Notes: generated by a model from the letters alone, not told the origin. DNA of 33,694 bases from Adineta ricciae (GCA_905250025.1 CAJNOJ010000319.1:48964-82657), one strand, 5' to 3'. Shown: positions 343 through 33,694, counted from the first letter of the stretch. Program-made: numbers and translations.

Positions 343-1431
343 TTATGAATCTTGTTTCGTCTTCCATTCTTGTTTGCATTTTGCCAAGAGTTGATCTTTT
401 GTTGGTTTCGCACCATTGTTTTCTTTGAAAAGTACAACTAATATTCCAATATAAGCTTCTCCAAATGCTGTAGTAATGGATGTTGCAACAGCCGCATCAA
501 TTATACCACCGGCAACTGATCCAACGCCTGGAATAAACTTTAATAGCGATGCCAAACCGAGTCCAACAATAGATGCACCACTTGCTGTTGCAAAAATTCC
601 CCATAAAGCAAGAATAACACTTCGTTCGATCTCAAAACCAAAAACTGCTGTTATAGATATAATCATTCCTATTTCAATTGGTACAAGAACTGCCATATCA
701 GAGAATGGTATTGGTATAGCTCCGGCTGCTGCCGCAGCGATTGCTGATGCTCCGACAATTCCATGTGCCTTGAGGATTTTTGCACTGAAATCGGCATTTT
801 GAGCAGCAAGAAAAGCGATCTGTTGTGCTGCTGGGAGTAATTCCTGTGTCGTTTTCACGAGGCTTGGAAGTCCTGTTGACGGAATAGGTGGATATCCTTT
901 GCGTATACTCTTCTCCTTCGCAACAACAGGTATAACTTTAGGATCTTGAAATTTTTGTTGAATTATATTAAATAAAGTGTTGTCTTCATCGTAAGATTGT
1001 GTAATAACAATAACTACTGGAATATACTTGGAAATCATTTCCACAAAGGCAATTTCCCCTTCTTCCAGTCGATTCGACGTGTGTGAAATACACATCCAAG
1101 CTATGTGAATATGTTCATTTATATCCTTATTCTTTTGACACCGCTTTATAAACGAACAAACTTCTTCCATTATTTTTTTAAATTCTTTCATTTCAAGACC
1201 ACGTGAATCAAACAGTGTTACTGAAGTACCTGGTATCGCATATTTCTGTATATTCTTGGTAACTGGTGAACCTGTGCCAGTTGTGGCTACATCTTCTTTG
1301 AATACTGCATTGATCAGAGTACTTTTACCAACACCAGTACGACCAACAACTATTATATTTGTTCGACCTAACTGCTTGATTTCGGCGTCAATATTTCGAA
1401 GTAAACTTTCATCCGTTTGAAAACCTGCCAT
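343..1431 (-). CDS. P-loop GTPase fused to a Gly/Ala-rich DUF697-like membrane domain; single exon, bacterial-type architecture
   Basis: 362-aa intronless ORF. It has a Walker A/G1 motif GRTGVGKSTLINAV and a DxxG-like LFDSRGLE. The C-terminal half is Gly/Ala/Ile-rich with predicted membrane helices (AIAAAAAGAIPIPFSDMAVLVPIEIGMIISITAVFGFE ... GLGLASLLKFIPGVGSVAGGIIDAAVATSITTAFGEAY). This resembles DUF697 (YcjF-like) domains fused to MMR_HSR1-type GTPases in bacteria. The family assignment is from memory, not from a search. Confidence 0.55.
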   Translation of the reverse strand: MAGFQTDESLLRNIDAEIKQLGRTNIIVVGRTGVGKSTLINAVFKEDVATTGTGSPVTKNIQKYAIPGTSVTLFDSRGLEMKEFKKIMEEVCSFIKRCQKNKDINEHIHIAWMCISHTSNRLEEGEIAFVEMISKYIPVVIVITQSYDEDNTLFNIIQQKFQDPKVIPVVAKEKSIRKGYPPIPSTGLPSLVKTTQELLPAAQQIAFLAAQNADFSAKILKAHGIVGASAIAAAAAGAIPIPFSDMAVLVPIEIGMIISITAVFGFEIERSVILALWGIFATASGASIVGLGLASLLKFIPGVGSVAGGIIDAAVATSITTAFGEAYIGILVVLFKENNGAKPTKDQLLAKCKQEWKTKQDS

Positions 1432-4585: not shown

Positions 4586-6514
4586 TTAATCGCGTTGTAG
4601 AAATGTTTTGATATCAAAATAAATTAATCCGAAAACTGATTTAATCGTTCGAAAATGTTGAATAATTGGATAAATTCCAACAATAGAAAATGAAACAAAT
4701 AACCAAATGATTCCCAAACAAATCCAACAAGTAAAAAATGTTTCGGAAAAAATATACGATGATGCAAACATTGGCCATGGCCAAATGACAATGAAACAGA
4801 TTGTTATTCCAATTGCTAAAAAACAAATGGATCGTGAATTGTCTTTTAAATAAATAATTGCACGTTCAATTTCAACAATTGTTGAATTATTTGTATTTAC
4901 TAAATCATCTTCAATTAAAGCAATTCTTCTCATTGATACAAAATCATAAGGATTTTCATTTGGTTTAATCAAATTCAATAAAGGAATAAATAAACAAGGA
5001 CTTAATAATGCAACAAGATTTCCAATGAGCATTGATAAATTTGATCCCGTTGTTTGAATATTAATTTTTTCAAAGAAATATTTTGTTGTTAATAACCAAG
5101 AAACAATTGAACATATTAAACCCAATAATGGTGAAAGACAAACAGCTAATTTGTTTTGTTTAGTCGATAAAAGTGTGAGTATAACTGGTACAACAGCACT
5201 TGATATGAGAATTCCCATTAATGTATATAAATAACCCATACTGATTGAACTATAATATAAACCAATAGATAAAATAATCATTATTAAGACAAAAATCAAT
5301 AAAGATAAATGTGAAATAAAAAATAATCGTTTTTTCGATGCATTTGGATGAAAATAAGTTCGATAAATATCAAATGTGATTATTGAAGTAACAGCAATGA
5401 ATTGTGAAGACATTGCACTCGTACATGCTAAATAGATCAAAATAAAACTTAATAAACTTCCAGTTTTTCCAAGTAAAACAATTGCAGCTGAAGGTAATGT
5501 TAAACCAGATGTTATTTCATCTACATTTAATCGATTTGGATATGTTGGAAATAAAGGATTTGTTTGAAGTGTTATAGCAACAATACCCATAGTTGTACCA
5601 GTTACAAATGGTATTGCAAACCATGCTAAACCAGCAAGAATATATGCACGTACAATCGATTTTGAAGAAGCAGCAATGACTTTATTATAATATCCATTAT
5701 CAAGAAAAACTGTTCCAAAATTTCCAACAAGATTTATTAAATAAAACATTAAACCATTTCGAGAATTGAGTGTTAAGTAAGAACCTTGAAAATTTCCATC
5801 AACTGGATGATTTAAACTTTCATTAACAAGTAAAGTATAAATTTGAGAAAATGAACCCAATAAAGATGATGTTCGATATGTTACAAAAGTAAAAATGAAT
5901 ATGATGACAACAATAATGACATTATGAATATAATTTGTTAAAAATGTTGCTTTTAATCCTCCAAATATTGTATAAATTATTGTTCCCAATGGTAATAAAA
6001 AACATATTGCAATAATATTCATTCCACATAATGAATGAATAACAGCCGAACCACCTGTTAATAACATTGATGTAACAAGAATATTTGTAAATAAGAAGAA
6101 TAGAATAAATATCCAATGTCCTTCTCGACCATATCGTGCACGAATGATTTCTAAATATGTATGAGCAAATGGTGCTCGATGTTTAAATTCAATTGCAATA
6201 ATTGAAAATAAAATAATTTGAATTGTTGCACCATTTGCGTACCAAAATGCACCGGATATTCCATAGAGATAAGTAACTGAAGTTGATTGTAAAAGTGTAG
6301 CAGCCCATGTCCATGATGAAACAATTGATGATGATAATAAACCTGATCGAATCTTTCGATTTGCTGTTAAATATGTTTCACTTGACATTTGATTTTCACC
6401 ATTGAATCTTTGTAAAAGAAGTGTTATTCCAATCATCATAGAACTAAATAATAATCCAAAACCAATTAATATTATATAACCATCGATTTGTGTTAAGAAT
6501 GATGTTGTAAACAT
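4586..6514 (-). CDS. DUR3: Urea active transporter DUR3 (sodium:solute symporter family); single exon
   Basis: 642-aa intronless ORF with about 14 predicted TM segments. Long stretches closely resemble fungal/plant DUR3: AHTYLEIIRARYG, FTNILVTSMLLTGGSAV, FLLPLGTIIYTIFGGLKATFLTNYIH, HPVDGNFQGSYLTL, LINLVGNFGTVFLDNGYYNK. DUR3 is not a typical metazoan gene family. Confidence 0.88.
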   Translation of the reverse strand: MFTTSFLTQIDGYIILIGFGLLFSSMMIGITLLLQRFNGENQMSSETYLTANRKIRSGLLSSSIVSSWTWAATLLQSTSVTYLYGISGAFWYANGATIQIILFSIIAIEFKHRAPFAHTYLEIIRARYGREGHWIFILFFLFTNILVTSMLLTGGSAVIHSLCGMNIIAICFLLPLGTIIYTIFGGLKATFLTNYIHNVIIVVIIFIFTFVTYRTSSLLGSFSQIYTLLVNESLNHPVDGNFQGSYLTLNSRNGLMFYLINLVGNFGTVFLDNGYYNKVIAASSKSIVRAYILAGLAWFAIPFVTGTTMGIVAITLQTNPLFPTYPNRLNVDEITSGLTLPSAAIVLLGKTGSLLSFILIYLACTSAMSSQFIAVTSIITFDIYRTYFHPNASKKRLFFISHLSLLIFVLIMIILSIGLYYSSISMGYLYTLMGILISSAVVPVILTLLSTKQNKLAVCLSPLLGLICSIVSWLLTTKYFFEKINIQTTGSNLSMLIGNLVALLSPCLFIPLLNLIKPNENPYDFVSMRRIALIEDDLVNTNNSTIVEIERAIIYLKDNSRSICFLAIGITICFIVIWPWPMFASSYIFSETFFTCWICLGIIWLFVSFSIVGIYPIIQHFRTIKSVFGLIYFDIKTFLQRD

Positions 6515-9422: not shown

Positions 9423-10679
9423 ATGAAATCGAAAAATTTGTTTTATTATTTGGCAATTACAATTGGAACATCATCATTATTATATCGATCATTTCAATTG
9501 ATTAAAAAGAAATTTTTCTTGAAAAGAAAAGTTTATTTAAATGGTTTATCATGTTCATTTCCATTGAATTGTTATTCTCAAGATGAAATGAAAGAAATGT
9601 TTATTGAAAATTATTGTGGCGGAAAAGAAAATCTTCTGGAAAAAGATTTTGATTTTATTCAACGAGTTTTTCAAGCTTCATGTATTGACACATCTTATGT
9701 GAATTTATCAAAAAATAATTTATTCAAACGAATGAAAAGAGAAGAATATACAAATTATGTTAAACAAACTTTAATTGAAATTTCATGTAAATCAGCGAAA
9801 AATGCCATTGAAAATTGTCTTCATTTAAATTCCAATGAAATTACTCATATTATTTTTGGAACAATGACAGGAACAATTGCAGCACCATCAATGGATATTC
9901 ATCTTGTTAAAGAACTTCAATTAAATTCAAATATAAAACGTTTAAATGTTGAATCAATGGGTTGTTTAACTGGTTTTCGATTAATTGGTTTATGTAATGA
10001 TATTGCATTACAAGATGAAAATAATATTGTTTTATTAATTGTTTCTGATATTCGTTCAGCTTTGGGAAATCAATTAACGCCATTTGAATCCAATCAACCA
10101 ATTGATAAATCCAATGTGATTATTTCTGCACTTTTTCGTGATTCATCTGGTGCAGCGATATTTTCTCAAAAAGCAATTTTCTCCAACGAACTTTCCTATT
10201 GTCACATTTTAAAACATCAATCAACAATTATTCCAGATACAATTGAATTGGGTCGTTTAAAAGAATTCAATGATTCAAGTATTCATCTTTATTTAGATAA
10301 ACAATTGCCTTATGCTGTTTTTGATGCTCTTCCAAATTTTGTTTCGAAATTATTAAATGAATATCAAATTGATATTTATCATTGTCAATTTGCTGTTCAT
10401 ACGGGTGGACCAAAAATTATTCGTGGAATAAAAGAATGTTTAAATTTAGATGATGAACAATTATGTTCATCATGGTATGTAATGACACATTATGGAAATC
10501 TTAGTGGATCAAGTAATCTCGTTGTTTTGGAACATTTTTGTCGATGGAAATATTCGGAAAATAAACCAAATGAAAAAGGAATTTGTTTTCCCAAAGATTT
10601 CAATCGATATAAATATATTGTTGGACTTTCATTTGGACCGGGAATTGCTGTTGAAGGTGTTTTATTCCAATTAGAATGA
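9423..10679 (+). CDS. Type III polyketide synthase (chalcone/stilbene synthase superfamily); single exon with a hydrophobic N-terminal extension
   Basis: 418-aa intronless ORF. The Cys-His-Asn catalytic triad motifs are all present: ESMGCLTGFRLIGL (active-site Cys in the GCxxG context), AVHTGGPKIIRGI (His in the H-x-GG context) and THYGNLSGSSNLVVLEH (Asn in the GN-x-SS context). GLSFGPGIAVEGVLFQ is the conserved C-terminal GFGPG loop. The N-terminal about 30 aa (LFYYLAITIGTSSLLY) look like a membrane anchor. Confidence 0.85.
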   Translation: MKSKNLFYYLAITIGTSSLLYRSFQLIKKKFFLKRKVYLNGLSCSFPLNCYSQDEMKEMFIENYCGGKENLLEKDFDFIQRVFQASCIDTSYVNLSKNNLFKRMKREEYTNYVKQTLIEISCKSAKNAIENCLHLNSNEITHIIFGTMTGTIAAPSMDIHLVKELQLNSNIKRLNVESMGCLTGFRLIGLCNDIALQDENNIVLLIVSDIRSALGNQLTPFESNQPIDKSNVIISALFRDSSGAAIFSQKAIFSNELSYCHILKHQSTIIPDTIELGRLKEFNDSSIHLYLDKQLPYAVFDALPNFVSKLLNEYQIDIYHCQFAVHTGGPKIIRGIKECLNLDDEQLCSSWYVMTHYGNLSGSSNLVVLEHFCRWKYSENKPNEKGICFPKDFNRYKYIVGLSFGPGIAVEGVLFQLE

Positions 10680-10696
10680 GAGAAAAGTCAATATGT

Positions 10697-10768
10697 GCCT
10701 CTATAGCTCAGTGGTAGAGCGCCAGTCTTGTAAACTGGAGGTCCGTAGTTCGATCCTGCGTGGAGGCA
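10697..10768 (+). tRNA. tRNA-Thr (anticodon UGU), 72 nt, no encoded CCA
   Basis: The manually folded cloverleaf has these parts. Acceptor stem GCCTCTA/TGGAGGC. D-stem GCTC/GAGC with loop AGTGGTA. Anticodon stem CCAGT/ACTGG with loop C-T-TGT-A-A. Variable loop AGGTC. T-stem CGTAG/CTGCG with loop TTCGATC. Discriminator A. Internal A-box TAGCTCAGTGG and B-box AGTTCGATCC. It is followed directly by an oligo-T tract. Confidence 0.9.
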
Positions 10769-10782
10769 TTTTCGTTTTTTTT
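10769..10782 (+). terminator. RNA polymerase III oligo(dT) terminator of the tRNA-Thr gene
   Basis: ttttcgtttttttt lies immediately 3' of the tRNA discriminator base. This is the eukaryotic Pol III termination signal and supports a eukaryotic origin for the window. Confidence 0.6.
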
Positions 10783-10836
10783 CTTGTTTTCTTTCTGTCT
10801 ATGTATTATGTTTTTATTTCGAAAAAAGAAAATCAT

Positions 10837-12084
10837 TTATTTTTCAATTGAAACTTTTTTTTTATAATTTTCATAAATCGATTGAATTTCTTCTGAAGAA
10901 ATAATTTGAGATAAATGTTGAAATGGATTTGGAGAACGATGATCAATAATACGAAGAATTTCATCAGGTCCATATTGACGTGCTAAAAGAACCATTCGAT
11001 CAGTTAAAGGATGACGAATACTTTCATAATGTTCAAGTGCTTTATTAGTAATTCCATGAAGAATAAATGATCGATATAATTGTTGAGCATCTAAAATAGC
11101 TTGTGAAGCTCCATTACCTCCATTTGGATACATAGGATGTGCGGCATCACCTATTAATGTTACACAATTAAATGTCCAACGAGGTATTTGATCACGATCG
11201 GTGATTGGAAATTGATTTATATTCATTGATGATTTGATTAATTGTTCAATATCAATGAAATCCAATTTCATTTCTTGAATTAATGGAAGAAAATCTTGAT
11301 GATTACCTTTGTTTGTCCAATCAATGGAATTTAATGATAATGAAGATGAATTTGTTTCATTTTGAATTCTCAAAACACACGCCCAATTAATTAAATTATT
11401 TGATAAAGGATATAAAATGAAATATTTCGTATCTGGATTTCCCATACAAATCATTGTTTTTCCATCAAGATAAGTATTTTCTTGATAAGTTATTCCACGC
11501 CAAATTTGAAGACCTTTCCAAACCGGTAAACCTTCATTCGGATAAAAAATTTTTCTCACACTTGAATTGATTCCATCAGCACCAATTAAAATCTTTGTTT
11601 GAATCACTTTGATTTTATTGATTTTTGTATTTAAAAATTTCAATTCAATTAGATTTGATTTTTCATTAAATTCAATTAATTTATGAGAAAGTTGAATAGT
11701 CGATGGAGAAGTTAATTTTTGTAATTGATAAAAAAGTATTTGATGTAAATATCCTCGATGTACTGAATACATTGGATGAGAATAACCTCCATCTAAACCT
11801 CGAAGATCTTCAAAAATGAATTGACCATGACGAGAATAAAACAACGCTTTTTTTGTTTGAATTCCAACTTGATTTAATTGATTTTCTAATCCAAGTTCAT
11901 AAAGACATTTTACGCAATATGGTTGAAGATTTAATCCAAATCCAACTGTATCAATATGTTCCGATTGTTCAAATAAACGAAGTCGAACATTTAAACGACT
12001 TAAATATAATGCTGTTATTAATCCACTGATTCCTCCGCCAATGATTGTTATATCAATAATATCATCATTGTCAACTGGATTCAT
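10837..12084 (-). CDS. Class A FAD-dependent aromatic monooxygenase (salicylate hydroxylase / UbiH-like, FAD_binding_3 type); single exon
   Basis: 415-aa intronless ORF. It has an N-terminal dinucleotide-binding fold IIGGGISGLITALYL...LFEQ, a DG motif GADGINSSVRK and a C-terminal GDAAHPMYPNGGNGASQAILDA FAD fingerprint. It is convergent with the type III PKS, with only the tRNA between them. Confidence 0.85.
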   Translation of the reverse strand: MNPVDNDDIIDITIIGGGISGLITALYLSRLNVRLRLFEQSEHIDTVGFGLNLQPYCVKCLYELGLENQLNQVGIQTKKALFYSRHGQFIFEDLRGLDGGYSHPMYSVHRGYLHQILFYQLQKLTSPSTIQLSHKLIEFNEKSNLIELKFLNTKINKIKVIQTKILIGADGINSSVRKIFYPNEGLPVWKGLQIWRGITYQENTYLDGKTMICMGNPDTKYFILYPLSNNLINWACVLRIQNETNSSSLSLNSIDWTNKGNHQDFLPLIQEMKLDFIDIEQLIKSSMNINQFPITDRDQIPRWTFNCVTLIGDAAHPMYPNGGNGASQAILDAQQLYRSFILHGITNKALEHYESIRHPLTDRMVLLARQYGPDEILRIIDHRSPNPFQHLSQIISSEEIQSIYENYKKKVSIEK

Positions 12085-12975
12085 TGATTCTCTGAGTGCG
12101 TTTCATTCACTTTTTTACGTATATATCCAATGATACTCTTTTCTCTTTTTTTTTCTTCTGTTCTGTGGATGTGATATGAAGAATGAAGGAAGAAAAAATA
12201 CAACGAAGTATCAATACTGTGGATGTCGCAATCGAACGATTCAATTTCTTCATTTTTTTTTTCGAATAGATTTCTTAGTCTAAGTTTACAAATTATTCGA
12301 TTTAACTGAAAGATATAATCGAACATTAAGTTCTACGCGTAATACATAGGAAAAGAATTTATTCGGAAATCCAAACATGAAAAGATGATTTCTTTTTCTA
12401 ATTCACATTTATTCATTCTCTTGTTTACCTTCTTTTCCAATCGTCGTAGTCAAATGTCTCCCTGGAGATTTCGACAATGGAATCCGTGACATTTTCGAAT
12501 AAATTCCTGTCGGATCCGATCGTTGAATCATTTATCTTCGGATGAAATATCAAATGAATTGTTCGAAGAATAACTTCTATTTCATAGGAATTTTACCAGA
12601 AGTACATCGAATATTTACAATCGAACGTTCATATTCTCTGTCATTGAATAATGTTTATTTTACAATGTGTTCTTTTGATTATCATATCAGATGTTAAAGA
12701 TATTTGCTCAGTAAACCATCATTCTGACTGTTCTTCAATAATTCCATTGTCATATTGATTATGTTATTAGTTTGTGCACAACTTTGTCTTGATTTTAAAA
12801 AACTATAATGAAATGCATTTATGTGAAGCTTTATAATTAACAAAAACATTCCATAATGTACCACATTGACTATTTCATTAGTTTGTGCAATAACTCAATG
12901 TGAAAATCAAATGCGTCTATTTCTTCTTGTTTATTTCCCCTTTTCTTTTGCATGAAAACTCATACATGATCGTCG

Positions 12976-15900
12976 ATGGTTCATAAAAGTTTTCAAATGA
13001 AACAAGCAGATATTTCCACTTTATCATCACCATTGAATGGTAAAATAATTGTACTCGAACTTGGTTATGAAATCAGTTTGAAAAGTAAACAAGAATTAAT
13101 GAAATATTTACGAGAAAAACAAGCACGTATTTCATATATATTGACATCCAGTGTATGCTCACATTGAGTTTTCTATTGATCATATATTTAAAATTGATTT
13201 CTTTAGACTGATTATGTTTTATCTACAAATAATGTCGATACTTACAAAATACGTCGTGCTAAACAACTTGGTTTACCAATAGTTGATGTTGAATATATAT
13301 GGAGATGTCGTTCTTTGTCATCTGATCAAAAACAAATTGATATTAATCAATTTATTATCAAATCAACGGAAGATCAAGAAAATTTTAGAAAAACGGGCAC
13401 TATTTCCGTGAGAAATATTTGTAATTCGTGTTCGATAGGAAGATCTCGAACGAATTTAACTCAAATGAAATTGTGGAATTCTGATGAAGTCGGTTTACCT
13501 CGTTTTGATGAATTAACTCATTGTGAAATTGGTAAATGGGCCATTTTTAAAGTAAATTTTCTATTTTATGATTTTCATAAATTTTTTCTTTTGTAAATAA
13601 TAGGAAACTAATGAAACTTTCGATGTATTTTTTGTTCTTGAACTTCAAGTTATTCCTGAACAATACTACGATCAAACAACAAGTGATTATCGATTAAGAT
13701 TTCGATATGAAAAACGTATTATTGATCAAACAGTGTTAATACAATATGCATTTAGTAATGATTCAAATGAACAACAACAATTATTTGCATCATATTATGA
13801 TCGAATAGCTAAAATGCCACGTATAACACGAATTCGTGAAATATTACATAATCAATTAGGATCAAAATTATTATTACGTGTAAATAAATAGGATTTAGAG
13901 AAAAAAGAAGAAAAGGAAAAATCAATTTGTATTTTTAGTCATTATTTACTCATTGTATTGATACACAAATACTCGATGCAAATGTGTGTCAATTAATCGA
14001 ATCACTTTGGTTGGAATCAATTGGTGATTTAAATCAAATTCTAAGTATAAAACCTGAATCATTTACTCTTAAAACGGTATTTACAAATATATTTATATGA
14101 ATTTATCAATTGAAATTATTAAATAGATTATTGAAGCTGAAGCTGCATTACTTGAACTCAAATTGACCAATGATCCTGCTGTTGCAGATCGTTTTTATTC
14201 ATTAATACCCCATCGATCACAGTATCATATTGATCTTATTAAGAATCGTCGAATATTGATTGAAAAACTCGACTTGTGTCAAGTAAAATTGTTTTTTTAA
14301 ATTTCTTCTCTTTTCTTTCTCAATTCTCTTATTCAGATGCTTCGAGATATGTTAACAGTCAATGAACTAACTAATTGGAATGTAAAAGCATCAATTGAAG
14401 CAAAATATCGAGCATTGAAATGTCATATTGAAACAATGTCAAATTCAACATCGGAATTTAAGAATATTGTGAATCTCATTCAATCATCCAGAAATAGGTG
14501 AGAAAATTGTACATAAAACAATTTTCTTCTTATTTATATAATTATAGTAATGAACAAATTGTTATTCATAATGTATTCAATGTCGTTAAACAGACAGATA
14601 CTCTCAATTTTTGTACAAAATTATCCAATCAACAACAACTTTTTCACGGATCAAAATATTCAAATTTCCTCGGAATTCTTTCACGGTAAAATATTCGTTT
14701 TATTCTTTAGAAAAGATTTTAATATTCCGATGATTATATGTATAAAGAGGTTTATCTATGCCAAAAATGGTAGTTGAAGAATTAGGTGTTGATCGCACTG
14801 ATATTGGTTGTCTTGGACATGGAATTTACTTTTCTAATTCTGTTTCAACATCTTTAAAATATACAACAGCAAGTACAGTACGATCAGGTCGTCGTTTATT
14901 ATGTATTTGTCAAGTGGCACTTGGTGAATCAGCTGATTATTATTCATATTCACCAACACTCATCAAACCTCCTGATGGTTTTCATAGTACACATGGAATT
15001 AAACAAACTGAAGATAATCATTCAATATTTAATGTAAGTTTCAATGAAAAATGAGAATCAATCTGAGAATATTTTCTAAATATTGTGATATGTAGGATGA
15101 TGAATATGTAATTTATCAAGTTGATCAACAACGTTTACTCTACATTGTAGAAGTTTCATGGATATTAAAAAATGAAATTAATATTGAATTAGAACGATTA
15201 TCAATTATTCATGATGAACAAAATCTATTTAAAACAAATGAAATTCCTACGATATTAATCGATGATGATAAAATTACTGAAATAGCTGAACAAGATTATG
15301 GTTTAATATGTTCATCATCAAGACAACTTGTTCCACTTAAATCATTTCATATTCGTGCTCAAATTATCGATACTACAGTTGAAGTAATTCGATCGATTTT
15401 TCTATTGAATTCATTTCTCATATATTTCTATTTGATTTCAAAAACAAAAGGTTGTTCTCTATCAAGTTTATCAAAATCCAAGTTCAATTCCAATTGAAGC
15501 CAAATATGTATTTCCTCTTGATGAAAATTCAATTGTTTGTGGTTTTGAAGCACATATCAATAATCAAATTATCAAAGGTATTGTTAAAGAAAAACAACAA
15601 GCGAAACAAGAATATAAACAAGCTATTGAAAAAGGTCATGGTGCTTATTTAATGCATCAAGAAGAAGCACAAGTATTTAGTGTTGCTGTTGGGAATTTAC
15701 CAGGTCATAATGAAGTTATTATTAAAATAACTTATGTTGCACAATTAGACATTGAAAATGGTGATATTATTTTTCGTTTTCCTGCTAAAATGGCTTCATG
15801 GCAATCGAAAAAAGCGATCGAAAACAAAGATCAATCAATTTTACGATCGATTAGTATTATCGATGAAAAAGTTCAATTTAGTTTGAAAGCATCAATTCGA

Positions 15901-17601
15901 ATGCCATATGAAATATCGAAATTATTTTCACCAACACATCGTCTTCGTCGAAAATTAACTGATTGTACAGCTATGATTGAACTTGTTGATAAGATTTTAT
16001 TTGATCAAGATTTTATTCTTTCAATAACACTTAAGAATCCTAATTTACCTCGAATATCAAATGAAACATCGAATAACGATGATTCTCAAGTATCGATGCT
16101 CACATTTTATCCACAATTTCAAACATTAATGAATTCAAACGAACAAATTGAAATTATTTTCATTGTTGATGTGTCAAATTCAATGGATGACAGTCAGACA
16201 CAACAAGCTAAACAATTAATTCATTTGTTTCTTATGAATTTGAAAGTTGATGATGAAAAAACATATTTTAATGTCATTTTTTTTGGATCAGGTAAGAAAA
16301 GACAATTGTCAAGTGTTATTTTATTATTTAAATTATCAATATTCATTTAGATAATGATGAATGTTTTCCTATTTCAATGTCAACAAAGAAAGAAAATCTG
16401 GATAAAGCCAAATATTTTGTTCTTGTGAGGATAATTTCTCTCTTTTTAATCAAATTTTCGTCTATTGAAATTTTAGCATTCACCTGTTCATCGTGGGAGT
16501 ACAAATCTATTTGCTGTTTTTCATCGTTATTCATTATTACCATCAACATTATCATCGAATTTCGGTCGTCAATTTATTTTATTATCTGATGGACATATTC
16601 ACGATCTTAATTCGATTCTTATTTTACTTAAACATCACCCAACTATGCAACATGATCGTTTATTTACATGTTCAATTGGTAATATCGCAAATAAACATAA
16701 TTTAAAACAATTGACTAATGAAGCAAATGGAGGTGGTTTATTCACAATATTTGATTCAAATTATCGATCAAAATGGAAAATAAAAGTATTGAATATTCTC
16801 GATAAGATTCACCAACCATGTATTACAAATATATCAATTGATTGGCATGGTTGTTTCAATAAAGAACAAAAGTTTCATATACAAGCACCAAAAAGAATTC
16901 GATCTTTGTTTAATGGAATGCGACTTACTGTTTATCGATTCATAGAAAATTGTCATAAGGCAACATTAACAGCTATTGTAAATGGACAAGAATTTGTTAC
17001 AACTGTATTTAGTAGTTCAATGACAACTAACAAAGGAAATATTTTACATTGTTTAACTACACGAGCGATCATTGATGATTATGATAATGGTCTATGGAAT
17101 GTCGATGAAAGTGAAAATGAATTAATTAAAATTCAATATAAACGAGATCTTATTGACCTTAGTATTAAACATTCTGTTATTAGTCCATACACTAGTTTTG
17201 TTGCCATTGAAGAACGTAATATTCAAATCGATCAAAATCATTCATCTTCGATTAGAAATGTTCGTTTACTTGATATTATGCTTGAACGAGATGAGGATTT
17301 ATTACCCTATATGAGTTGGGATGGTGATGTATCAAATTTGACTTTAATCAAACAAAACTTAGCCGATGCACGTCTTTTACTTCAATGTGCATCGTTTCAG
17401 AGTAAAAAGGAAACAATTGCTGATATTGAAAAACTTTGCCAAAAAATTTCGTATCGAACAGGTGGAGATGAAAAATTCAATGCAATGATGACGATCATAC
17501 GTACATATCGTTATTCATTGAGTGAATACGATCAAGCAGATGAAATTGAAGAGAAAATGCGACATGGTATCTCATTTGATTTATTAATAATATATATTTA
17601 A
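12976..17601 (+). CDS. Vault poly(ADP-ribose) polymerase (PARP4/vPARP)-like multi-exon gene: BRCT, PARP catalytic, VIT and vWA domains
   Basis: There are many short introns. A BRCT-like start runs about 12976-13330 (LNGKIIVLELGYEIS...IRRAKQLGLPIVDVEYIWRC). The PARP catalytic exons run about 14100-15130, with the H-Y-E triad in LFHGSKYSNFLGILS, GIYFSNSVSTSLKY and DDEYVIYQVDQQRLLYIVEV. The VIT domain runs about 15440-15980 (VVLYQVYQNPSSIPIEAKYVFPLDENSIVCGFEAHINNQIIKGIVKEKQQAKQEYKQAIEKGHGAYLMHQEEAQVFSVAVGNLP). The vWA exons run about 16140-16900 (IIFIVDVSNSMDD...). The TAA stop is at 17599-17601. A possible extra 51-bp intron (17567..17617) plus the exon 17618..17718 could extend the C-terminus by about 33 aa. 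Individual exon boundaries were not all resolved. Confidence 0.75.
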
Positions 17602-17883
17602 TCGAAAAAATCAATAGATATTATCATCGAAATGATTAATGCAACAGAAGAAGAACGACAAATATTGGAACAACAATGTTTCGCGAATAATTTAATAATC
17701 TCAAGCGATCAATTGTAAATCAAAGACAAATCTTTTTCGGAAAAAAAAATCAATATTCGTTTGTCTTTTAGTAAATTATTGGCTGAACATAATTCCACAG
17801 ACTTTTCAATTGCGAATAATACTAAAATAAGTGTACGTGAGTGAAACTGTAAGACGAAGAATTCTTCTATAGAAATACTCTAG

Positions 17884-18391
17884 GCTGATCAATTGACTGA
17901 AGAACAAATAGCTGAATTTAAAGAAGCGTTTTTTCTATTTGATAAACATGGTGATGGTACAATTACAATAAAACAATTAGGTACCGTAATGCGTAGTCTT
18001 GGTCATAATCCAACTGAAATTGAATTACAAGATATGATCAATGAAGTTGCTGCTGATGGTACGATTTTAATCAATCAAATTTGATTTGCTTCATTTGTTT
18101 TTGTATTGTCAGGTAATGGTACAATTGATTTTCCTGAATTTTTAACAATGATGGCACGTAAAATGAAAGATACTGATTCAGAAGAAGAAATTCGCGAAGC
18201 ATTCAGTGTTTTTGATAAGAATGGTGATGGAATTATATCAGTTGACGAATTTCGGTAACGAAAGAAAGGCAAATGTGCAAATTTATTTATTCTGTTTCTT
18301 TCTTTTTAAAGTCATGTTATGACAAATTTGGGTGAAAAACTCACCGATGAAGAACTTGATGAAATAATTCGTGAAGCAGATGTTAATGGAG
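17884..18391 (+). CDS. Calmodulin-derived EF-hand exons (3 exons: 17884..18058, 18113..18254, 18312..18391); the initiator-ATG exon is unresolved
   Basis: The translation is [133 protein letters not shown]. This is very similar to calmodulin. The introns sit where calmodulin introns are expected, including a first exon that would contribute only the ATG. The Ca-binding loops EF1 (position 12 is Q), EF2 (position 1 is A) and EF4 are non-canonical. Confidence 0.7.
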
Positions 18392-18461
18392 GTATAGACC
18401 TTTTTTTTGTAACCAAAACCCACTGAAATGAATGTTAAAACATGTTATGTTGTGATTTGAG

Positions 18462-19337
18462 GTGTCGATTTGATGGCGTTATTTGGTTCGTATAACCATG
18501 CAACTGATAAATCTGTATCGACTCCCGATAAGTCAAAATCATACGAACGATCTGAGAACATAGAAATATCTCCAAAAATCTTATCATTTGATGGTGAGAG
18601 AGAGGAAAATCTGCAATTTTCTGCAAATGAATCGAAAACTTCATTTTCAGCCAGTTCAGTATGTACATTTTCCATGGAACTTTTTTAAATAAAAATGTTA
18701 TTAACTTTTAGAGAGAACATAATGAGGATGACTTAATAACATTAGCGTCTAAAAGTGTTGAATCAAAATTCAATGTTTGTCCACTTAGTCTTGGAATAGA
18801 AGATATTTATGGTAATATGCATACACTTATTCATCGTAATACAACGATTCCAGTACAAACACAGTTTCATCAAATATTCACAAATGCTTATGCGTATCAA
18901 ACATCAGTTAATATTCGTATATTTGAAGGTGAACATAAACTTACAAAATACAATGTATGTAGTATTGGAACTTCAGAAACTTTTTGAATACAATCGTCCT
19001 CTATATTATAGATGTTTTTGGATGAATTTAGTCTTTCTGGTTTAACAAATAATTTGTTTGATCAAACACTTAAAATAGGCGTTCGTATGAATATTGATGT
19101 CAATGGAATACTTCGTGTTGATGCTGAAGAAGCTTGTTCAGGAGCAAAAGCATCATTTATTCTTTCTTCTGATAAGCCAAGTTCGAGAATTACTTTATAT
19201 GTTCCATATTATCATTGAATGTCATTTATATTTCTATAGGAATGAGCAAAGAAGATATTGAAAAACATATGACATTTGTAGAAAGTTATACAAATTCTAT
19301 AGTTGATGATGATAAATCCAATGATTCATTATATCCG
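18462..19337 (+). CDS. Linker exon plus Hsp70 substrate-binding-domain (SBD)-like exons, phase-compatible with the upstream calmodulin-like exons (18462..18658, 18712..18954, 19012..19180, 19240..19337)
   Basis: REHNEDDLITLASKSVESKFNVCPLSLGIEDIYGNMHTLIHRNTTIPVQTQ...IRIFEGEHKLTKYN matches the Hsp70 SBD-beta block (PLSLGIE...RNTTIP...Q..F.T...VYEGER..TKDN). ...NIDVNGILRVDAEE matches the Hsp70 block DIDANGIL.VSA. ...GMSKEDIEKHM matches the Hsp70 block GRLSKEDIERMV. No Hsp70 ATPase domain is encoded upstream. Confidence 0.55.
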
Positions 19338-19403
19338 GTTTGCATTAGTTTATTTATCTTTATATAAAGTTTAACATTTCACTTTGTTTTTATCTTTTCT
19401 CAG

Positions 19404-20178
19404 CTTGATGGTCAAATTACAAATATAACACATACTTTTTCTGACAAATTGGACACTTCATTCGGTAATTTATTCTTATTTACTATTTTATTGTAATGAT
19501 ATATAAATTTAGATCAAAAAGTTAACGTAACATTTCTTCGAAAAATGAAAGACATTCAATCAACAACAACAATCATTGAACAATTGCTAAAACTTCAATC
19601 TGAAGTAGAAATTTCATAAAATATATTTCTTACTTTCTATTTTATTCGAATCTATAGGATGGTTCATTTAGATTGAATTCCAATTTAGCTGATGTGTTTC
19701 GTATTGATCCTAATAGTTTAAATCATATTGAAATCTATTTAAATAAACAAGGTTTTAATTTACTTGGTAAGATCCAATGATTTTGTTTTTCACCAATATG
19801 AAATTTTTCCTATTCTAAGCTTTGAATATACAAAATGAAATTTATCATTTAATTGGTACGGGTATCGTTCTTCTTTGGTTTATACTTCAACTACCATCTC
19901 TACATCAGTATACAAACCAATTTTTATCCAACATCGAACAAATCGAAGTGAATGAGATTCTTTTTCGAACTATTTATTTTATATTCGAACTGTTTTGTCT
20001 TTAAATCTTTAAGATTGATCTTTGCAACTTTTTTCCTGATAACATAATTGAACATATTAACAAAGCGATTGAATTCTACCGACAAACAAGTCAACGTGAT
20101 GATATTTATTGTAAACAATTGGGATTGGATGATTCATCATGGAATATATTTATTCAACGTATATTTATCGGACTTTGA
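19404..20178 (+). CDS. vPARP/PARP4 C-terminal (MVP-interaction-region-like) tail exons (19404..19464, 19513..19604, 19658..19766, 19820..19947, 20014..20178; stop TGA)
   Basis: KMKDIQSTTTIIEQLLKLQSE|DGSFRLNSNLADVFRIDPNSLNHIEIYLNKQGFNLLG|ALNIQNEIYHLIGTGIVLLWFILQL...|IDLCNFFPDNIIEHINKAIEFYRQTSQRDDIYCKQLGLDDSSWNIFIQRIFIGL* aligns by eye with the extreme C-terminus of vertebrate PARP4 (LLSLQTEDGFWKLTPELG...SFLKQKGIQSLGVKGRECLLDLIATMLVLQFIRTRL...NIPWAFEAIKQASEWV...ICPRLELGNDWDSATKQLLGL). All splice phases are continuous with the Hsp70-SBD-like exons upstream. Confidence 0.6.
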
Positions 20179-21522: not shown

Positions 21523-23190
21523 TCAATATAATTCACTTGTATTCAGAGAAGCATTTCCATTTGATCCACTTGCAACTAATATCGTTCCATCAAGTAAAAG
21601 TGATGCGGTATGAGAATGTCGTATCGTACTCATATTCGATAGTATTGTCCAATTATTTGTTGATGGATCGTATAATTCAGCACTGTTGAGATAAACATTA
21701 TTTTTACTTTGTCCACCTGTTACTAAAATTGTTCCATTCAATAAAACAGTCGCTGTATGAAAGTATCGCGCAGTTGTCATACTCGATGTTGTTATCCAAC
21801 TATTTGTTGAAGGATTATATAATTCAGCACTGTTCAAAGAACTACTGCTACCGTAACCGCCTGTAACTAACACTTTTCCATTCTGTAGGAGAGATGCGGT
21901 ATGAGAATATCGTGCAACAGTCATGTTCGCCACTGTTGTCCAATTTCCCGTAGATGAATTATATAATTCAGCACTATACAGAGGTGCATTATTACTATAT
22001 CCACCTGCAACTAAGACTGTTCCGTTCAGTAAAACTGATGCAGAATGTCTGAATCTTGCAGCATTCATATTTCCTGTAGTTGACCAAGTGTTTATTGATG
22101 GATCATACAATTCAGCACTGTTCACATAACCACTATTAGCAGAACCACCTGCAACTAACACTTTTCCGTTTTGTAAGAGAGATGCTGTGTGATAATATCG
22201 TGTGATGCTCATATTTCTGGTTGTTGTCCAATTACCTGTAGATAGATTGAATAATTCTACGCTATTCAGAGAAGTAACACTATTTTGTCCACCTGTTACC
22301 ATTACTATCCCAGATAATAAGAGAGACGAAGTGTGATAAGATCGAGTAGTTCTCATGTTCCCTGTTATTGACCATGTATTAGTAGATGGATCATACAGTT
22401 CAGCACTGTTAAGAAAAGCGCTATCACTCTGTCCACCTACAACTAATACTGATCCGTTCGATAAAACTGATGCAGTATGTTTGTTTCGGGCAATATTCAA
22501 ATTTTTCATCGTTGTCCATCCTAAAGAACCAAAAAGTAAAAATCAGGTAAATTTACTCAATTAAAACTGTCAAATGTCGAAAGATAAATCGAAGTATTTC
22601 AATTGCTAGAAGATATTTTTCATTTATAAGAGAGTTCGTTATGCATCGATAACTATATAACATCAACATACTATTTATCTATTTTCTGAGGATTTTTCAA
22701 AAAAAAACGAACGACAAGTAATGAAAGAATTATTTCAATTTTGCCTTACCTTTCGGTGACGCAGTTGTTGTGGATGTTGATTCTATAATTTCAGAGAATA
22801 TCATAGAGAAAAACGAAGATTTCTTTGCTGTTATTTTGCTTTCTCGAAGTCTCGTCAAAATTCACTAAACTTACCATGTGTTATTATTGTTATAACGATC
22901 GATGTTCGATTAAGAAATACCATTGTAACATTCGAATAGGATTCAATTGTCAATGAATTATTATTTAAATTGAACAATTGGCACGTTTCATTTGAATGAA
23001 AATAATTGATAAGAGATACTGAATTGTTATTTAAATTGATCATTTGACAAATACATTCATCAAGTGTTCTATTGAAAAAGATCCGCGTTTCAGTACCAAT
23101 ATATGTGTAATCATATACTGTCCCAATGGCGATCGTATGAATTGTAGGTATGTAGAACAGAATCAGACTAAGAAAAATCACGTCTGTCAT
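21523..23190 (-). CDS. Secreted Kelch-repeat beta-propeller protein, 3 exons (22875..23190, 22750..22782, 21523..22520)
   Basis: Exon 1 holds a signal peptide (MTDVIFLSLILFYIPTIHTIAIG) plus a Cys/N-glycan-rich module, donor CATG|GTAAGT. A 33-nt Thr-rich exon (ESTSTTTASPK) follows. The last exon holds about 7 Kelch blades with the motif R-x-x-HTASLL-x-NG-x-VLV-x-GG...LNSAELY-x-PST-x-W. Phases are 1-1 and consistent. Confidence 0.7.
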
Positions 23191-23961: not shown

Positions 23962-25898
23962 ATGAATGTCAATGATGAAACATCTGTTAATGATGTTCAA
24001 TTCAATCAAAATTCCTCTCAGGTAAGAATCTTTTATTTTGTTTTCCTTATGACAAGTGAGTTTTCGTTTAGAGAAGCTTTCTTAAGAAATTAATTCCAAA
24101 TTTTTTGCGAAAAAATTCGTCATCTGACGATGCTGACAATCCATATGCAAATGAATATGCTGATACTCAAGTTTTAGTTCAAGGAGAAAAAGTTGATTTA
24201 CATCGAAATTTACAAGAACGACATATGATCATGATTGCATTAGGTGGAACCATTGGAACGGGATTATTTTTAGCGTCTGGACAAGCTTTAGCATCGGCTG
24301 GACCTGGTGGCTCTTTAGTATCTTATTTAATCATTTCTGTTATGGTTTATTTCGTTATGACAAGTTTAGGTAAAATTATTTGATATCTTAGATGAAAAAG
24401 ACTTTTATGGTTTTTTTTAAAGCTGAATTAGCAACACAATATCCGATAAGTGGTTCCTTCAATACATTTGGAAGTCGATTTGTTGATGAAGCTTTTGGAT
24501 TTGCATTAGCATACAATTATTATTTTTCTTGGGTAACAACGATCGCAGGTGAATTAGTTGCTGCTGGTCTCATTGTTCAATATTGGTTGCCACACTTTCC
24601 CTCAATTGTTTGGTCAATCCTGGGAATGTTAGTTATGTTTTTATTAAATGCATTTACAGTGAAAGGTTATGGTGAAGCTGAATATTGGTTTGCAATGATT
24701 AAGGTCATAACTGTACTCGTATTTCTACTTGTTGGTGTTCTTGTTGATTCGGGTGCTATTGGAAAACCAAGAGAAACAATTGGTTTTAAGAATTGGAAAA
24801 TTGAAGGTGCACCTTTTGTTGGAGGAGTTGCTGGTGTTATTACAACATCGATTATATCTGGTTTTGCTTTTCAAGTACGAAGAATTTCGTTTTTTTCTCG
24901 AATATAATCTCTCAGCGAATATATAGGGAACAGAAGCAGTTGGAATTGCAGCTGGTGAAAGTTCCAATCCAAAAAAAGATGTTCCACGTGCAATGAATGG
25001 AACAATTTGGCGTATTATTTTATTTTTTGTTGGTGCTATTTTTATTATGGGTTTAATTATTCCATATAATGATAAAAAACTAAGTCAAATTAATGGTGTT
25101 GATAGTATCGCTGTTTCCCCATTTACATTAGTATTTAGTCTATCGGGTATTCCAGGAGCTGATCATATTATGAATGTTGTTATTTTAACAACAATCTTAT
25201 CAGCTGGTAATTCAGGTCTTTATTTATGTACAAGAATATTTTGGACTTTAGCAAATGAAGGCAAAGCACCGAAAATCTTTCGTCGTTTAACAAAAGGTGG
25301 AATACCAATTTATTGTTTAATTTTAACAACTGTTTTAGCAACTTCTTTGTTTGGTTTATCATTTGTTGGAAATCAAGTTATTTATATTTGGTTAGTTAAT
25401 ATGACGAGTGTTATGGGTTTCATTGCTTGGTTTGGAATCGCTATTGCACATTGGAGATTTCGTCGAGCGTTTCTCGCACAAGGTTATTCATTGAATGATT
25501 TGGTTTATAAAGCGTTATTCTTTCCTGTTGGACCATTTTTAGCATCGCTACTTATTTTACTTTGTGTTTTTGGACAAGGTTATTCAGCATTTACACAAAA
25601 AACCTTCAATTGTACTCAGTTACATGAAGAAGAAACCTATCTTTTTGAATTCAATAATCAATATTTAATCGATAGCGGAAATTCAACGACGTGTACAAAA
25701 ACAGTCTTTAATGTTCAAACATTTTTATCTGGTTATGTGATCTTACCAATCCTTGTTATTATGTTTTTCGTTTATAAATATGTTAAGAAAACGAAATTTA
25801 TTCCACTTAAAGATATTGATTTACTTACTGATAGTGTTATGGAACGTGATCGTTTGAAACGAGAAAGAATACAACAATTACAACAAACAGACGCTTAA
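23962..25898 (+). CDS. Amino-acid permease of the fungal/bacterial AAT (GAP1/LysP-like, PF00324) type, 4 exons (23962..24021, about 24072..24369, 24423..24874, 24927..25898)
   Basis: Signature ERHMIMIALGGTIGTGLFLASGQAL. Other conserved blocks are ELATQYPISGSFNTFGSRFVD, FAFQ|GTEAVGIAAGESSNPKKDVPRAMNGTIWRIILFFVG and NAGNSGLYLCTRIFWTLANEGKAPKIF. There are 12 predicted TM segments. Short introns have GTAAGA, GTAAAA and GTACGA donors. Confidence 0.8.
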
Positions 25899-28154: not shown

Positions 28155-28940
28155 TCACGCTGGTGTTCGTGCTTGACAACAACAATAGAAGTTTGTATTA
28201 GAAGTGCAAATACCCTTATTACTGAGATCTATTGTGGAAGGTGGAGTTGGAAATCCTCGACGACGGCGACTCGCCATCGCCAAACTGGTCCCGGGAAAAG
28301 TCGTAACACAAGAGCCGTCGTTGCTAACAGGAACAGAGTTGATGACAGTGTCAAAACCACCTTTAGTACAATAGGTGACACAATTAGTTGAACTAGTGGC
28401 GCCGCCAGTTATAGTATAACCAACAGAACAAGTAACACCTGTTGGTTTAGATGTTGTTGTGGTTGTAGTAGTAGTAGTAGTTGTTGTTGTTGTCGTTGTG
28501 CTGGTAGTGGTAGTAGTTGTCGTTGTGCTGGTAGCGGTAGTAGTAGTAGTTGTTGTCGTTAGTGGTGTGATGACTGCATAAAAATATAATTAGTCTCATT
28601 TAATCTTAAGTCGACTAATTTGGGTATTAAACCTTGTCGAAATCCTAAGAGAGTGTAGGTGTATGCGATATTTATGACTTCTCACTTATGAATGTTTTTT
28701 TTATTTTGATAACTACATTTATGACTAGCTCATATCAGTTATTCTCAACAATTTTCAAAGAAAATCAATAATATTTTGGAGACGGGATGTGATTCATATT
28801 TTTCATGAAATGCATTTTTCAATCCGTGATATCTGTCGTATCATTCAGCGAACTAGTCTGCAACATACACATACAAACCTCTTCTAACTACGTATATCTT
28901 AGATAGGACACTCACCTTTTGTTGTAGATATTGTTTGCAT
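28155..28940 (-). CDS. Small Thr-rich (mucin-like) protein with Cys-containing C-terminal module, 2 exons (28916..28940, 28155..28573)
   Basis: Minus-strand translation: MQTISTTK|VITPLTTTTTTTTATSTTTTTTTSTTTTTTTTTTTTTTSKPTGVTCSVGYTITGGATSSTNCVTYCTKGGFDTVINSVPVSNDGSCVTTFPGTSLAMASRRRRGFPTPPSTIDLSNKGICTSNTNFYCCCQARTPA*. Donor AAAAG|GTGAGT, acceptor tttttatgcag. It sits in a locally GC-richer island. There is no obvious signal peptide in the short first exon, so the 5' end may be incomplete. Confidence 0.4.
28440..28562. repeat. Imperfect trinucleotide (GTN/ACN) microsatellite with an internal tandem duplication of about 30 nt; encodes the poly-Thr tract on the minus strand
   Basis: gtagtagtagtagtagttgttgttgttgtcgttgtgctggtagtggtagtagttgtcgttgtgctggtagcggtagtagtagtagttgttgtcgtt. 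The unit gtcgttgtgctggtagYggtagtag is repeated twice. Confidence 0.8.
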
Positions 28941-32989: not shown

Positions 32990-33694
32990 TGAATACTCTT
33001 ATTCAAATTTTGTTTCTTTTCAACCTTTCAAATCGATTAAATGGAAAATCTTTACAAAGATTTCCTCGAGGTTTGTTTTTTTCTTTTCAAAAAATTCTTT
33101 TTTTCACTATTTTTGTTCGTTGAAAAGGAGCCTATGCATATTCATCAAATATCTATGTTCGTTGTTTTTCATCTGATTCATTGGTAAAACTTTTCAATGG
33201 CACAACCAAATCCATATCAAATCTTAACATAGGTGATCAGTTAATGACAATCGATGACAATTCATTAAAAATTCTCTCCACTGAGATGCTTTTTATGTTA
33301 CATGAATCAAAAAATGAAACAAGTAATTCGTATAGTGAAAGAATTCGAAATGAACTTTTTTGTTGTCTTCAAGGTTTTTTTTATAAATTAAAAACAAAAT
33401 CAAATCATGAGATCAGTTTAACAGGAAATCATTTAATTCCAATAAAAGAATCTTTAAGTGGAAATTTTCTTTATATTTTGACAAAAACTATTAAAATTGG
33501 TGATTATTTAATTATTTATGAAAATGGTAAAATTGAATATTCTCAAGTGATAAAGAAAACAAAAGAAATAAAGAAAGGTTTTTATGCTCCATTGACAATG
33601 ACTGGAACATTATTTATCAATGAAATTTACTCAAGTTCATTTGCAAATATTCCAAATCATTATTTAGCTCAATTTTATTTATTTCCAATTCGAT
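32990..33694 (+). CDS. Hedgehog-type Hint (Hog) autoprocessing-domain protein, partial (continues beyond window); exon 1 32990..33071, exon 2 33128..>33694
   Basis: Exon 1 encodes MNTLIQILFLFNLSNRLNGKSLQRFPR (signal-peptide-like), donor CGAG|GTTTGT. Exon 2 encodes GAYAYSSNIYVRCFSSDSLVKLFNGTTKSISNLNIGDQLMTIDDNS...FMLHESK...EISLTGNHLIP...GFYAPLTMTGTLFINEIYSS. The Hint hallmarks are present: the catalytic C-F at the N-terminal boundary, the TxxH motif (SLTGNHLI) and the YAPLT.HGT block. Confidence 0.7.

Follow-up and report, generated by a model that had tools for sequence, protein, structure and literature searches.

Among the systems described so far, the closest to the one considered here is the vertebrate PARP4 (vault PARP, or vPARP), in which BRCT, PARP (with an H-Y-E motif), VIT and vWA domains are followed by a long linker and a C-terminal MINT domain. 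To our knowledge, PARP4 is the sole enzyme known inside vaults. The human MINT domain (residues 1562-1724) binds repeats 3-5 of the major vault protein (MVP), and mutagenesis has shown that S1614 and K1618 are needed for the contact (PMC12280208). PARP4-like proteins of other eukaryotes bear appended 14-3-3, actin or ubiquitin-related domains (Perina et al. 2014, PMC4245714). Here we consider a stretch of 33,694 nucleotides from the bdelloid rotifer Adineta ricciae (GCA_905250025.1 CAJNOJ010000319.1:48964-82657; the whole stretch is called the window, and positions are counted from its first letter), in which a PARP4 gene probably carries calmodulin-like and Hsp70-like pieces between its body and its tail.

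The predicted product of this gene follows the vertebrate order of domains, and differs from it in having both EF-hands and an Hsp70 substrate-binding domain (SBD) within the linker, neither of which occurs in vertebrate PARP4 (for example, shark P0310). Copy number differs as well, with many paralogs in bdelloids and about one PARP4 in most animals (PMC4245714). The likeness to the PARP4-like proteins of Perina et al. is that a VIT-vWA scaffold of PARP clade 5 takes up extra interaction domains after the vWA domain; in the Didymodactylos homolog P0325, a 14-3-3 domain occupies the very slot in which the window's gene has calmodulin. In contrast, insertions of calmodulin or of an Hsp70 SBD are not among their architectures (PMC4245714). 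The literature searched holds no paper on PARP4 in rotifers or on this architecture, and the gene is a lineage-specific PARP4 variant that is undescribed in that literature and present in public annotations only as unnamed fragments.

We consider it likely from the sequence that positions 12976-20178 make up one continuous PARP4 gene of 26 exons, with the calmodulin-like and Hsp70 SBD pieces lying between body and tail. Its parts are the following, with splice junctions marked by a slash:

12976-20178, plus strand: whole inferred gene, 26 exons and 25 GT-AG introns of 48-70 nt
12976-17566, plus strand: exons 1-12, PARP4 body (from Pfam, and from tblastn to P0039 of Rotaria sordida)
12976-13152, 13207-13551, 13604-13879, 13939-14076, 14127-14282, 14337-14497, plus strand: exons 1-6
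14548-14685, 14748-15033, 15096-15383, 15451-16291, 16351-16424, 16477-17566, plus strand: exons 7-12
Amino acids 17-93 of the product: BRCT domain (Pfam E = 4.7e-7; 30.4 bits against a cutoff of 21.3)
Amino acids 403-579: PARP catalytic domain (Pfam E = 5.9e-27)
Amino acids 640-750: VIT domain (Pfam E = 3.1e-37)
Amino acids 889-1051: vWA domain (Pfam VWA E = 1.9e-10, VWA_3 E = 2.1e-12)
17567-17617, plus strand: intron 12, 51 nt, phase 1, donor CAT G/GTATCT, holding the apparent stop at 17599-17601
17618-17714, plus strand: exon 13, 97 nt, peptide DIIIEMINATEEERQILEQQCFANNLIISSDQ, ending at a phase-2 donor, TT/GTAAAT
17715-17771, plus strand: intron 13, 57 nt, GT-AG, leading to the 61-nt exon 14
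17772-17832, plus strand: exon 14, 61 nt, peptide (F)KLLAEHNSTDFSIANNTKIS, followed by the donor AGT/GTACGTGAGTGA
17833-17883, plus strand: intron 14, 51 nt, phase 0, which begins at that donor and joins exon 14 to the first calmodulin-like exon
17884-18058, 18113-18254, 18312-18391, plus strand: exons 15-17, calmodulin-derived domain, amino acids 1377-1509 (Pfam EF-hand_7, 1.3e-25)
18462-18658, plus strand: exon 18, linker (GVDLMALFGSYNHATDKS...SFSASS), from comparison of open reading frames (ORFs) with the Rotaria loci L001 and L002
18712-18954, 19012-19180, 19240-19337, plus strand: exons 19-21, Hsp70 SBD-like module, amino acids about 1576-1745, beta sandwich and start of the lid
19404-19464, 19513-19604, 19658-19766, 19820-19947, 20014-20178, plus strand: exons 22-26, homolog of the PARP4 MVP-interaction domain (MINT, or MVP-ID), ending in FIQRIFIGL and the stop

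When spliced, the model has a coding sequence of 5,787 nt and a product of 1,928 amino acids, with zero internal stops among its 1,928 codons. It runs from an ATG at 12976 (an alternative ATG lies at 12997) to a TGA at 20176-20178, and the junctions within the body are those that agree best with the bdelloid homologs P0039, P0015 and P0004. The predicted product has the domains by which a PARP4 is recognized, namely BRCT, a PARP domain with H-Y-E, and VIT followed by vWA, with a helical region after the latter. The three catalytic motifs, predicted from sequence, are intact in LFHGS (H452), GIYFS (Y491) and DDEYVIY (E563), which we take to be the counterparts of the PARP1 motifs, and the vWA domain retains a DxSxS motif of the metal ion-dependent adhesion site type (DVSNS at 895).

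The initial annotation had described this gene as split, with its body ending at a stop at 17601 or 17718 and its tail left 2 kb downstream. Both stops are present, because the body frame reaches a TAA at 17599-17601 if read unspliced, and another at 17716-17718 once the 51-nt intron is removed. In our model both are intronic, the first being in intron 12 and the second within the donor of exon 13 (TT/GTAAAT). The apparent break is closed because three short GT-AG introns (17567-17617, 17715-17771 and 17833-17883) and two small exons bridge it; since the bridging introns keep the frame, the body, calmodulin-like block, linker, SBD-like module and tail would be translated as a single predicted chain. 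Removal of intron 12 yields the junction KMRH/DIIIEMINATEEERQ (...EEKMRH joined to DIIIEMINATEEERQILEQQCFANNLIISSDQ), and every bdelloid homolog has an equivalent sequence there (KMRN-DILTEMISATAEERQ and similar). Exon 13, which lies between the two apparent stops, codes for DIIIEMINATEEERQILEQQC..., a peptide kept in P0004, P0010, P0015 and P0039, that is, in every bdelloid homolog retrieved. The start of exon 14 is homologous to a Rotaria micro-exon, (F)KSLAEYD, and its end to ...TTDNMKIT. Downstream of the bridge, the calmodulin-like, linker, SBD-like and tail exons lie where the initial annotation had placed them and are joined in one frame by GT-AG junctions from 17884 to 20178; its estimate of 35-72 bp for the introns gives way to a measured range of 48-70 nt.

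The same arrangement is found in DNA of Rotaria sp. Silwood2 (L002), where body, calmodulin, SBD and tail follow one another in the same order on one strand. The Rotaria locus shares the phase-2 donor after exon 13 (GAC TT/GTAAGT), and its micro-exon T AAA TCA TTG GCT GAA TAC GAT G (acceptor cag/TAAATCATTGGCTGAATACGATG) is homologous to the start of the window's exon 14. It has two more linker exons, of which the last ends ...AAG ATA ACG/GTGCGTGAGTGA, compared with ...AAA ATA AGT/GTACGTGAGTGA in the window, so that an unusual donor, N/GT(A/G)CGTGAGTGA, is common to both. The acceptor of intron 14, ...CTCTAG/GCTGATCAA (where GCTGATCAA encodes ADQLTEEQ), is likewise conserved in Rotaria, where the calmodulin acceptor tag/GCTGATCAATTG... 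is in frame. In bridging exons, phases and donor, the comparison with an orthologous locus thus speaks against a split gene.

Alternative use of splice sites is possible at this point of the gene. In the window, a tandem donor (C/GTGAGT at 17837) and an internal acceptor at 17980 allow an in-frame splice, 17836>17981, that omits EF-hand 1 and could be a genuine minor isoform. The Rotaria model P0015 (L002 5205-5790) uses the tandem donor C/GTGAGT together with an internal acceptor, and so skips a perfectly canonical EF-hand-1 exon. Including that exon in Rotaria needs the donor ACG/GTGCGT and then an apparent GC-AG intron (TTG G/GCACG...ttag/GTACGGTGATG). The intron between calmodulin and linker is about 4.6 kb long in Rotaria and rich in repeats.

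The order BRCT-PARP-VIT-vWA, insert, linker, Hsp70 SBD, MVP-interaction tail recurs, pieced together across several models or whole in one, among the protein models of Rotaria, Didymodactylos and an A. ricciae paralog:

P0015 (Rotaria sp. Silwood2) and P0030 (Silwood1): VIT-vWA joined to EF-hands, with FKSLAEYD read in frame
P0038 (Didymodactylos): vWA joined to the N-terminus of calmodulin
P0018 (R. magnacalcarata): calmodulin, linker, SBD and tail joined
P0004 (A. ricciae paralog, compact 5.1-kb locus): VIT-vWA, linker, SBD and tail in one model
P0316 (Didymodactylos, 2,098 amino acids): PARP, VIT, vWA, HSP70 at 1776-1923 and tail in one model
P0325 and P0314 (Didymodactylos carnosus): PARP_reg, VIT, vWA, 14-3-3 (amino acids 1202-1264), HSP70 and tail

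The single models in Didymodactylos and in the A. ricciae paralog, the continuous spliced ORF and the conserved bridging exons all support the placement of these domains on one predicted polypeptide rather than in a split gene. The slot after the vWA domain is empty in some bdelloid paralogs and holds calmodulin or 14-3-3 in others, and by its sequence seems to be a preferred site for the insertion of domains. The SBD adjoins the tail in all bdelloid paralogs seen, and in the searches made the combination of an Hsp70 SBD with an MVP tail was confined to bdelloid proteins. The linkers are where the window copy departs most from its relatives. Exon 18 has its homolog in an exon from the middle of the Rotaria linker (GVELALAESFDSYDHTADTS); the several linker exons located ahead of it in other species are absent, and altogether the window is without about 55 linker codons before calmodulin and several linker exons after it that are seen in Rotaria and A. 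steineri. All of these losses are in frame, as would be expected under selection for a tail that stays joined to the body.

Exons 15-17 encode a block (ADQLTEEQ...ADVNGG) that is identical to calmodulin residues 2-134 at 114 of 133 positions (86%) and matches calmodulins in the PDB at E values of about 1e-70. By its sequence the block is calmodulin-derived, and it is not a calmodulin. Unlike the free protein of about 149 residues, with four canonical EF loops and a start codon of its own, it is embedded in a larger ORF and has no ATG; as the initial annotation had noted, a nearby start is lacking, with no ATG anywhere in 17677-17883. Calcium ligands are lost from EF-hand 1 (D3H and E12Q) and EF-hand 2 (D1A), EF-hand 3 is canonical, and EF-hand 4 is cut after DVNGG. 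Every bdelloid copy seen has a truncated EF-hand 4, and EF-hands 1-3 remain canonical in the Rotaria copy. Because EF-hand 3 alone retains canonical ligands, Ca2+ sensing by the window copy is probably weak or lost.

The boundaries of the block bear on its origin. A canonical calmodulin gene has the layout ATG/intron/ADQLTEEQ. The block begins exactly at codon 2, the exon-2 boundary, and an intron lies within the Gly codon of DADG/NG; set against this general knowledge of calmodulin genes, the two features suggest that calmodulin exons were captured at the DNA level through calmodulin's first intron, by exon shuffling. Insertion or shuffling of domains into an ancestral vPARP gene, which the initial annotation had entertained, is supported. 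A degenerate calmodulin was considered in the linker of the calmodulin-less paralog P0004 ('LVVEEQ...') and rejected, the EEQ tripeptide being all that matches.

The module encoded by exons 19-21 matches positions 388-565/599 of Pfam HSP70 (E = 4.7e-24). It resembles the SBD of Hsp70 and BiP in comprising the beta sandwich, identified by these sequence matches, and the first lid helix, and in opening with a DVCPL-type sequence as in BiP; splicing restores the Hsp70-like runs KYN/MFLDEF and DKP/RMSKEDIE. The best match is to BiP (3.5e-24), followed by Hsc70 (1e-22), with DnaK and mortalin at about 1e-16, and an origin from a DnaK-type SBD of bacteria or mitochondria was rejected on this difference. 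The first exon of the module opens right after an in-frame TAG, and no ATG lies ahead of the first beta strands. Unlike Hsp70, the module has no coupled ATPase: nothing resembling a nucleotide-binding domain is found in 18392-18711, so that an ATP-driven cycle is not expected of what is a putative peptide binder. It also has altered loops and a signature of its own, FTNAYAYQ, which is invariant across 22 bdelloid SBD sequences, and the window's SBD and tail keep nearly all positions that are invariant in the family. An AlphaFold model of the homolog P0125, built from a 21-sequence alignment, was poor (mean predicted local distance difference test score 44.6), and its top Foldseek matches, which were Hsp70 SBDs, add little.

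The last five exons encode what, judged by sequence profiles, is the MINT/MVP-ID domain, as had been proposed for this tail at the outset. As a single sequence the tail has a weak top match in the PDB to human PARP4 1575-1697 (E = 0.1); a profile of 12 bdelloid tails, the window's included, has human PARP4 1574-1698 as its sole match (E = 6.5e-7). An exhaustive HMMER search with the bdelloid tail profile recovered 74 proteins from 1.84 billion representatives, consisting of bdelloid sequences, unnamed fragments, and the PARP4 C-termini of shark, killifish, emu and mole-rat. The identification is made because the profile matches human PARP4 and because these vertebrate C-termini were recovered, and homologs of the tail bear the precomputed Pfam assignment PF26156 PARP4_MVP-ID. 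At E < 1e-3, that search recovered no PARP4 tails of non-bdelloid invertebrates, monogononts included. A word-indexed search with the tail profile yielded 12 short fragments, of bdelloid or environmental origin, and none of the distant PARP4s. By homology, the tail may bind MVP.

How strongly does the sequence itself argue for one gene? At the base composition of this DNA, the probability that a random codon is a stop is 0.084, and the chance that the 553 codons of exons 13-26 hold no stop is about 7e-22. Across 17567-17883, a stop-free in-frame path with at most three GT-AG introns of 45-75 nt exists in 4% of dinucleotide shuffles, which taken alone is suggestive and not decisive.

Several points weigh against a single gene. 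For the last 169 nt of the bridge, 25% of shuffles contain an in-frame path by chance, and the acceptor at 17883 has the lowest score of the 25 acceptors under a position weight matrix trained on the gene's 22 other introns, although this matrix barely parts true sites from decoys and so neither supports nor refutes introns 12-14. At 9950-14833 of a Rotaria magnacalcarata locus (L001, GCA_965120335.2) there is a truncated paralog that begins halfway through the calmodulin block and goes on into linker, SBD and tail; no PARP body and no EF-hands 1-2 are present within 10 kb upstream, where the neighbours are on the opposite strand. Because this copy has no body, the C-terminal module can stand alone. 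Many database models likewise begin inside the linker and contain linker, SBD and tail only. In Didymodactylos carnosus (L005, 13700-13995), a calmodulin-like exon starts with an in-exon ATG (MGKPIVHDLLVEEQIAEF...), 2 kb past the previous exon. The comparison proteins are all automated predictions, and no annotated protein returned by the database searches is identical, or more than 90% identical, to the product of 12976-20178, the best matches being paralogs or orthologs of 53-66% identity. Finally, the MVP-contacting residues S1614 and K1618 of human PARP4 align to L and N in the window's product (GFNLLALN), a further difference from vertebrates. The same two positions are S and N in most bdelloid copies, and it is possible that the contacts of the bdelloid tail co-evolved with bdelloid MVP.

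Two of these loci have features of their own. The P0018 model at the R. magnacalcarata locus overruns a natural stop (FIQRMVIGIDHDDN and stop) into extra exons. In the D. carnosus contig, EF-hands 1-2 are all that can be detected over the remaining 3 kb, and this may be a decayed or rearranged copy.

The likeliest alternative is a pair of transcription units, in which the body ends at the TAA at 17716-17718, intron 13 being retained or unused, and the calmodulin-like block, SBD and tail form a separate downstream gene. Such a gene could start by trans-splicing of a spliced leader onto 17883/17884 or from an internal promoter, with translation beginning at an internal methionine in VMRSLG (about 17990) or MALF (about 18471). 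Bdelloids trans-splice a 23-nt leader onto more than half (>50%) of their mRNAs, as stated in a passage of PMC1925144 that cites Pouchkina-Stantcheva & Tunnacliffe 2005. The bodiless R. magnacalcarata copy, the many predicted bdelloid proteins with linker, SBD and tail only, the weak score of the 17883 acceptor and the ATG that opens the Didymodactylos exon would all be in keeping with two units. We nevertheless regard this alternative as unlikely. The stretch 17677-17883 offers no ATG, and an internal methionine start would drop EF-hand 1, yet the sequence of EF-hand 1 is conserved. Moreover, the bridging exons and their phases are common to Adineta and Rotaria, the frame survives lineage-specific deletions on either side of the calmodulin block, and paralogs have full-length single models.

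A second alternative, that the ORF is intact and its chimeric arrangement is the relic of a decaying or non-functional paralog, is very unlikely. It draws on the substitutions in EF-hands 1 and 2 and the truncation of EF-hand 4, on linkers far shorter than those of the A. steineri and Rotaria orthologs, and on the loss of the human MVP-contact residues. It draws also on the database, where no annotated product, allele or transcript-derived ORF of the exact 12976-20178 locus was found; in public annotation it appears to have been left unannotated or unassembled, though a neighbouring GTPase is annotated in A. ricciae. Against decay, 1,928 codons are free of stops and frameshifts in AT-rich DNA, all 25 introns are GT-AG, the H-Y-E and DxSxS motifs are intact, nearly all family-invariant positions of the SBD and tail are kept, and every deletion is in frame.

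The initial annotation's own proposal, that the ATG at 17564-17566 is a calmodulin ATG-only first exon spliced to 17884 in a transcript overlapping vPARP, is the most improbable of all: 17564-17568 is indeed the sole upstream ATG/GT and fits the canonical calmodulin layout, but its GT is the phase-1 donor (CAT G/GT) of intron 12, and excising that intron gives back a junction that all homologs share, the intron required would be 317 nt, 4-6 times any other in the gene (48-70 nt), and a promoter inside a coding exon would be needed where nothing requires one, so that overlapping transcription units are unnecessary.

If the single 26-exon gene is accepted, its history and mode of action can be outlined. 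The region after the vWA domain, which is long and disordered in human PARP4, would have been the site of the bdelloid insertions. A BiP/Hsc70-type SBD may have been gained just upstream of the tail in the bdelloid lineage, calmodulin exons would have been gained in addition in one class of paralogs, and both linkers of the window copy would have been shortened through in-frame deletions. In the product, the tail would anchor the enzyme to MVP inside the vault and the H-Y-E domain would ADP-ribosylate targets, while the SBD-like module could provide a peptide-binding or structural surface close to the anchor and vault wall. The calmodulin-like module might add regulation that depends on Ca2+ or on a target peptide, and a slot holding calmodulin or 14-3-3 would serve signal-dependent binding of partners.

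A functional analogy for the calmodulin-like module is offered by calcium-dependent protein kinases (CDPKs), which are enzymes with a fused calmodulin-like regulatory domain. In the CDPKs of plants and apicomplexans, as in the window's gene, an enzyme carries in cis a fused block of EF-hands derived from calmodulin. The enzyme classes are unrelated, however, no autoinhibitory junction was identified here, and most Ca2+ ligands are lost in the window copy. By this analogy, an EF-hand fusion in cis could give a response to Ca2+ without free calmodulin.

Bdelloids are noted for surviving desiccation and radiation. It may be relevant that a lineage with these capacities has multiplied PARP4 and, in all paralogs seen, has an SBD next to the vault anchor. 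In the related A. vaga, radiation raises the expression of 17 PARP and five MVP genes, some of which are also over-expressed after desiccation (PMC10809525); this is the one indirect indication that the window's product may reside in vaults or bind MVP. One could imagine that the bdelloid vault PARP has been rebuilt as a modular lumenal adaptor, with the SBD by the MVP anchor and a swappable slot that holds calmodulin, 14-3-3 or nothing, and that vaults would take in clients that are unfolded or phosphorylated and ADP-ribosylate them while the animals recover from desiccation or radiation. We offer this idea tentatively and think it rather doubtful; if true, it would give vaults a concrete, testable role in the handling of clients. 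The gene is of moderate interest for the biology of PARPs, vaults and bdelloid stress responses. An implication for annotation is that automated models in public bdelloid assemblies divide this gene among two or three predictions or leave out exons (EF-hand 1 is missing from one Rotaria model), and because of this fragmentation surveys of domain architecture will miss it.

The window is AT-rich (about 30% GC) and its introns are very short. Apart from the PARP4 gene, it contains the following features:

346-1431, minus strand: GTPase ORF, 362 amino acids, identical to Adineta ricciae CAF1395984.1
2473-4249, plus strand: series of ORFs with a repeated DGT(A/P)DMR(Y/F) motif, no Pfam match
4589-6514, minus strand: sodium:solute symporter, single ORF
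9423-10676, plus strand: type III polyketide synthase (chalcone/stilbene synthase N and C domains), intron-less
10840-12081, minus strand: FAD-dependent monooxygenase, intron-less
21526-22542, minus strand: six-blade Kelch protein
24072-25895, plus strand: exons of an amino-acid permease
28158-28589, minus strand: Thr-rich mucin-like ORF
33124-33693, plus strand, running past the window end: ORF with a Hint (hedgehog/intein-type) module (E = 4e-29)

Bacterial-looking enzymes without introns are thus among the neighbouring genes, as is usual for bdelloid genomes. The polyketide synthase (9423-10676) and the monooxygenase (10840-12081) stand tail-to-tail immediately 5′ of the vPARP gene, and together they resemble a secondary-metabolism unit gained by horizontal transfer.

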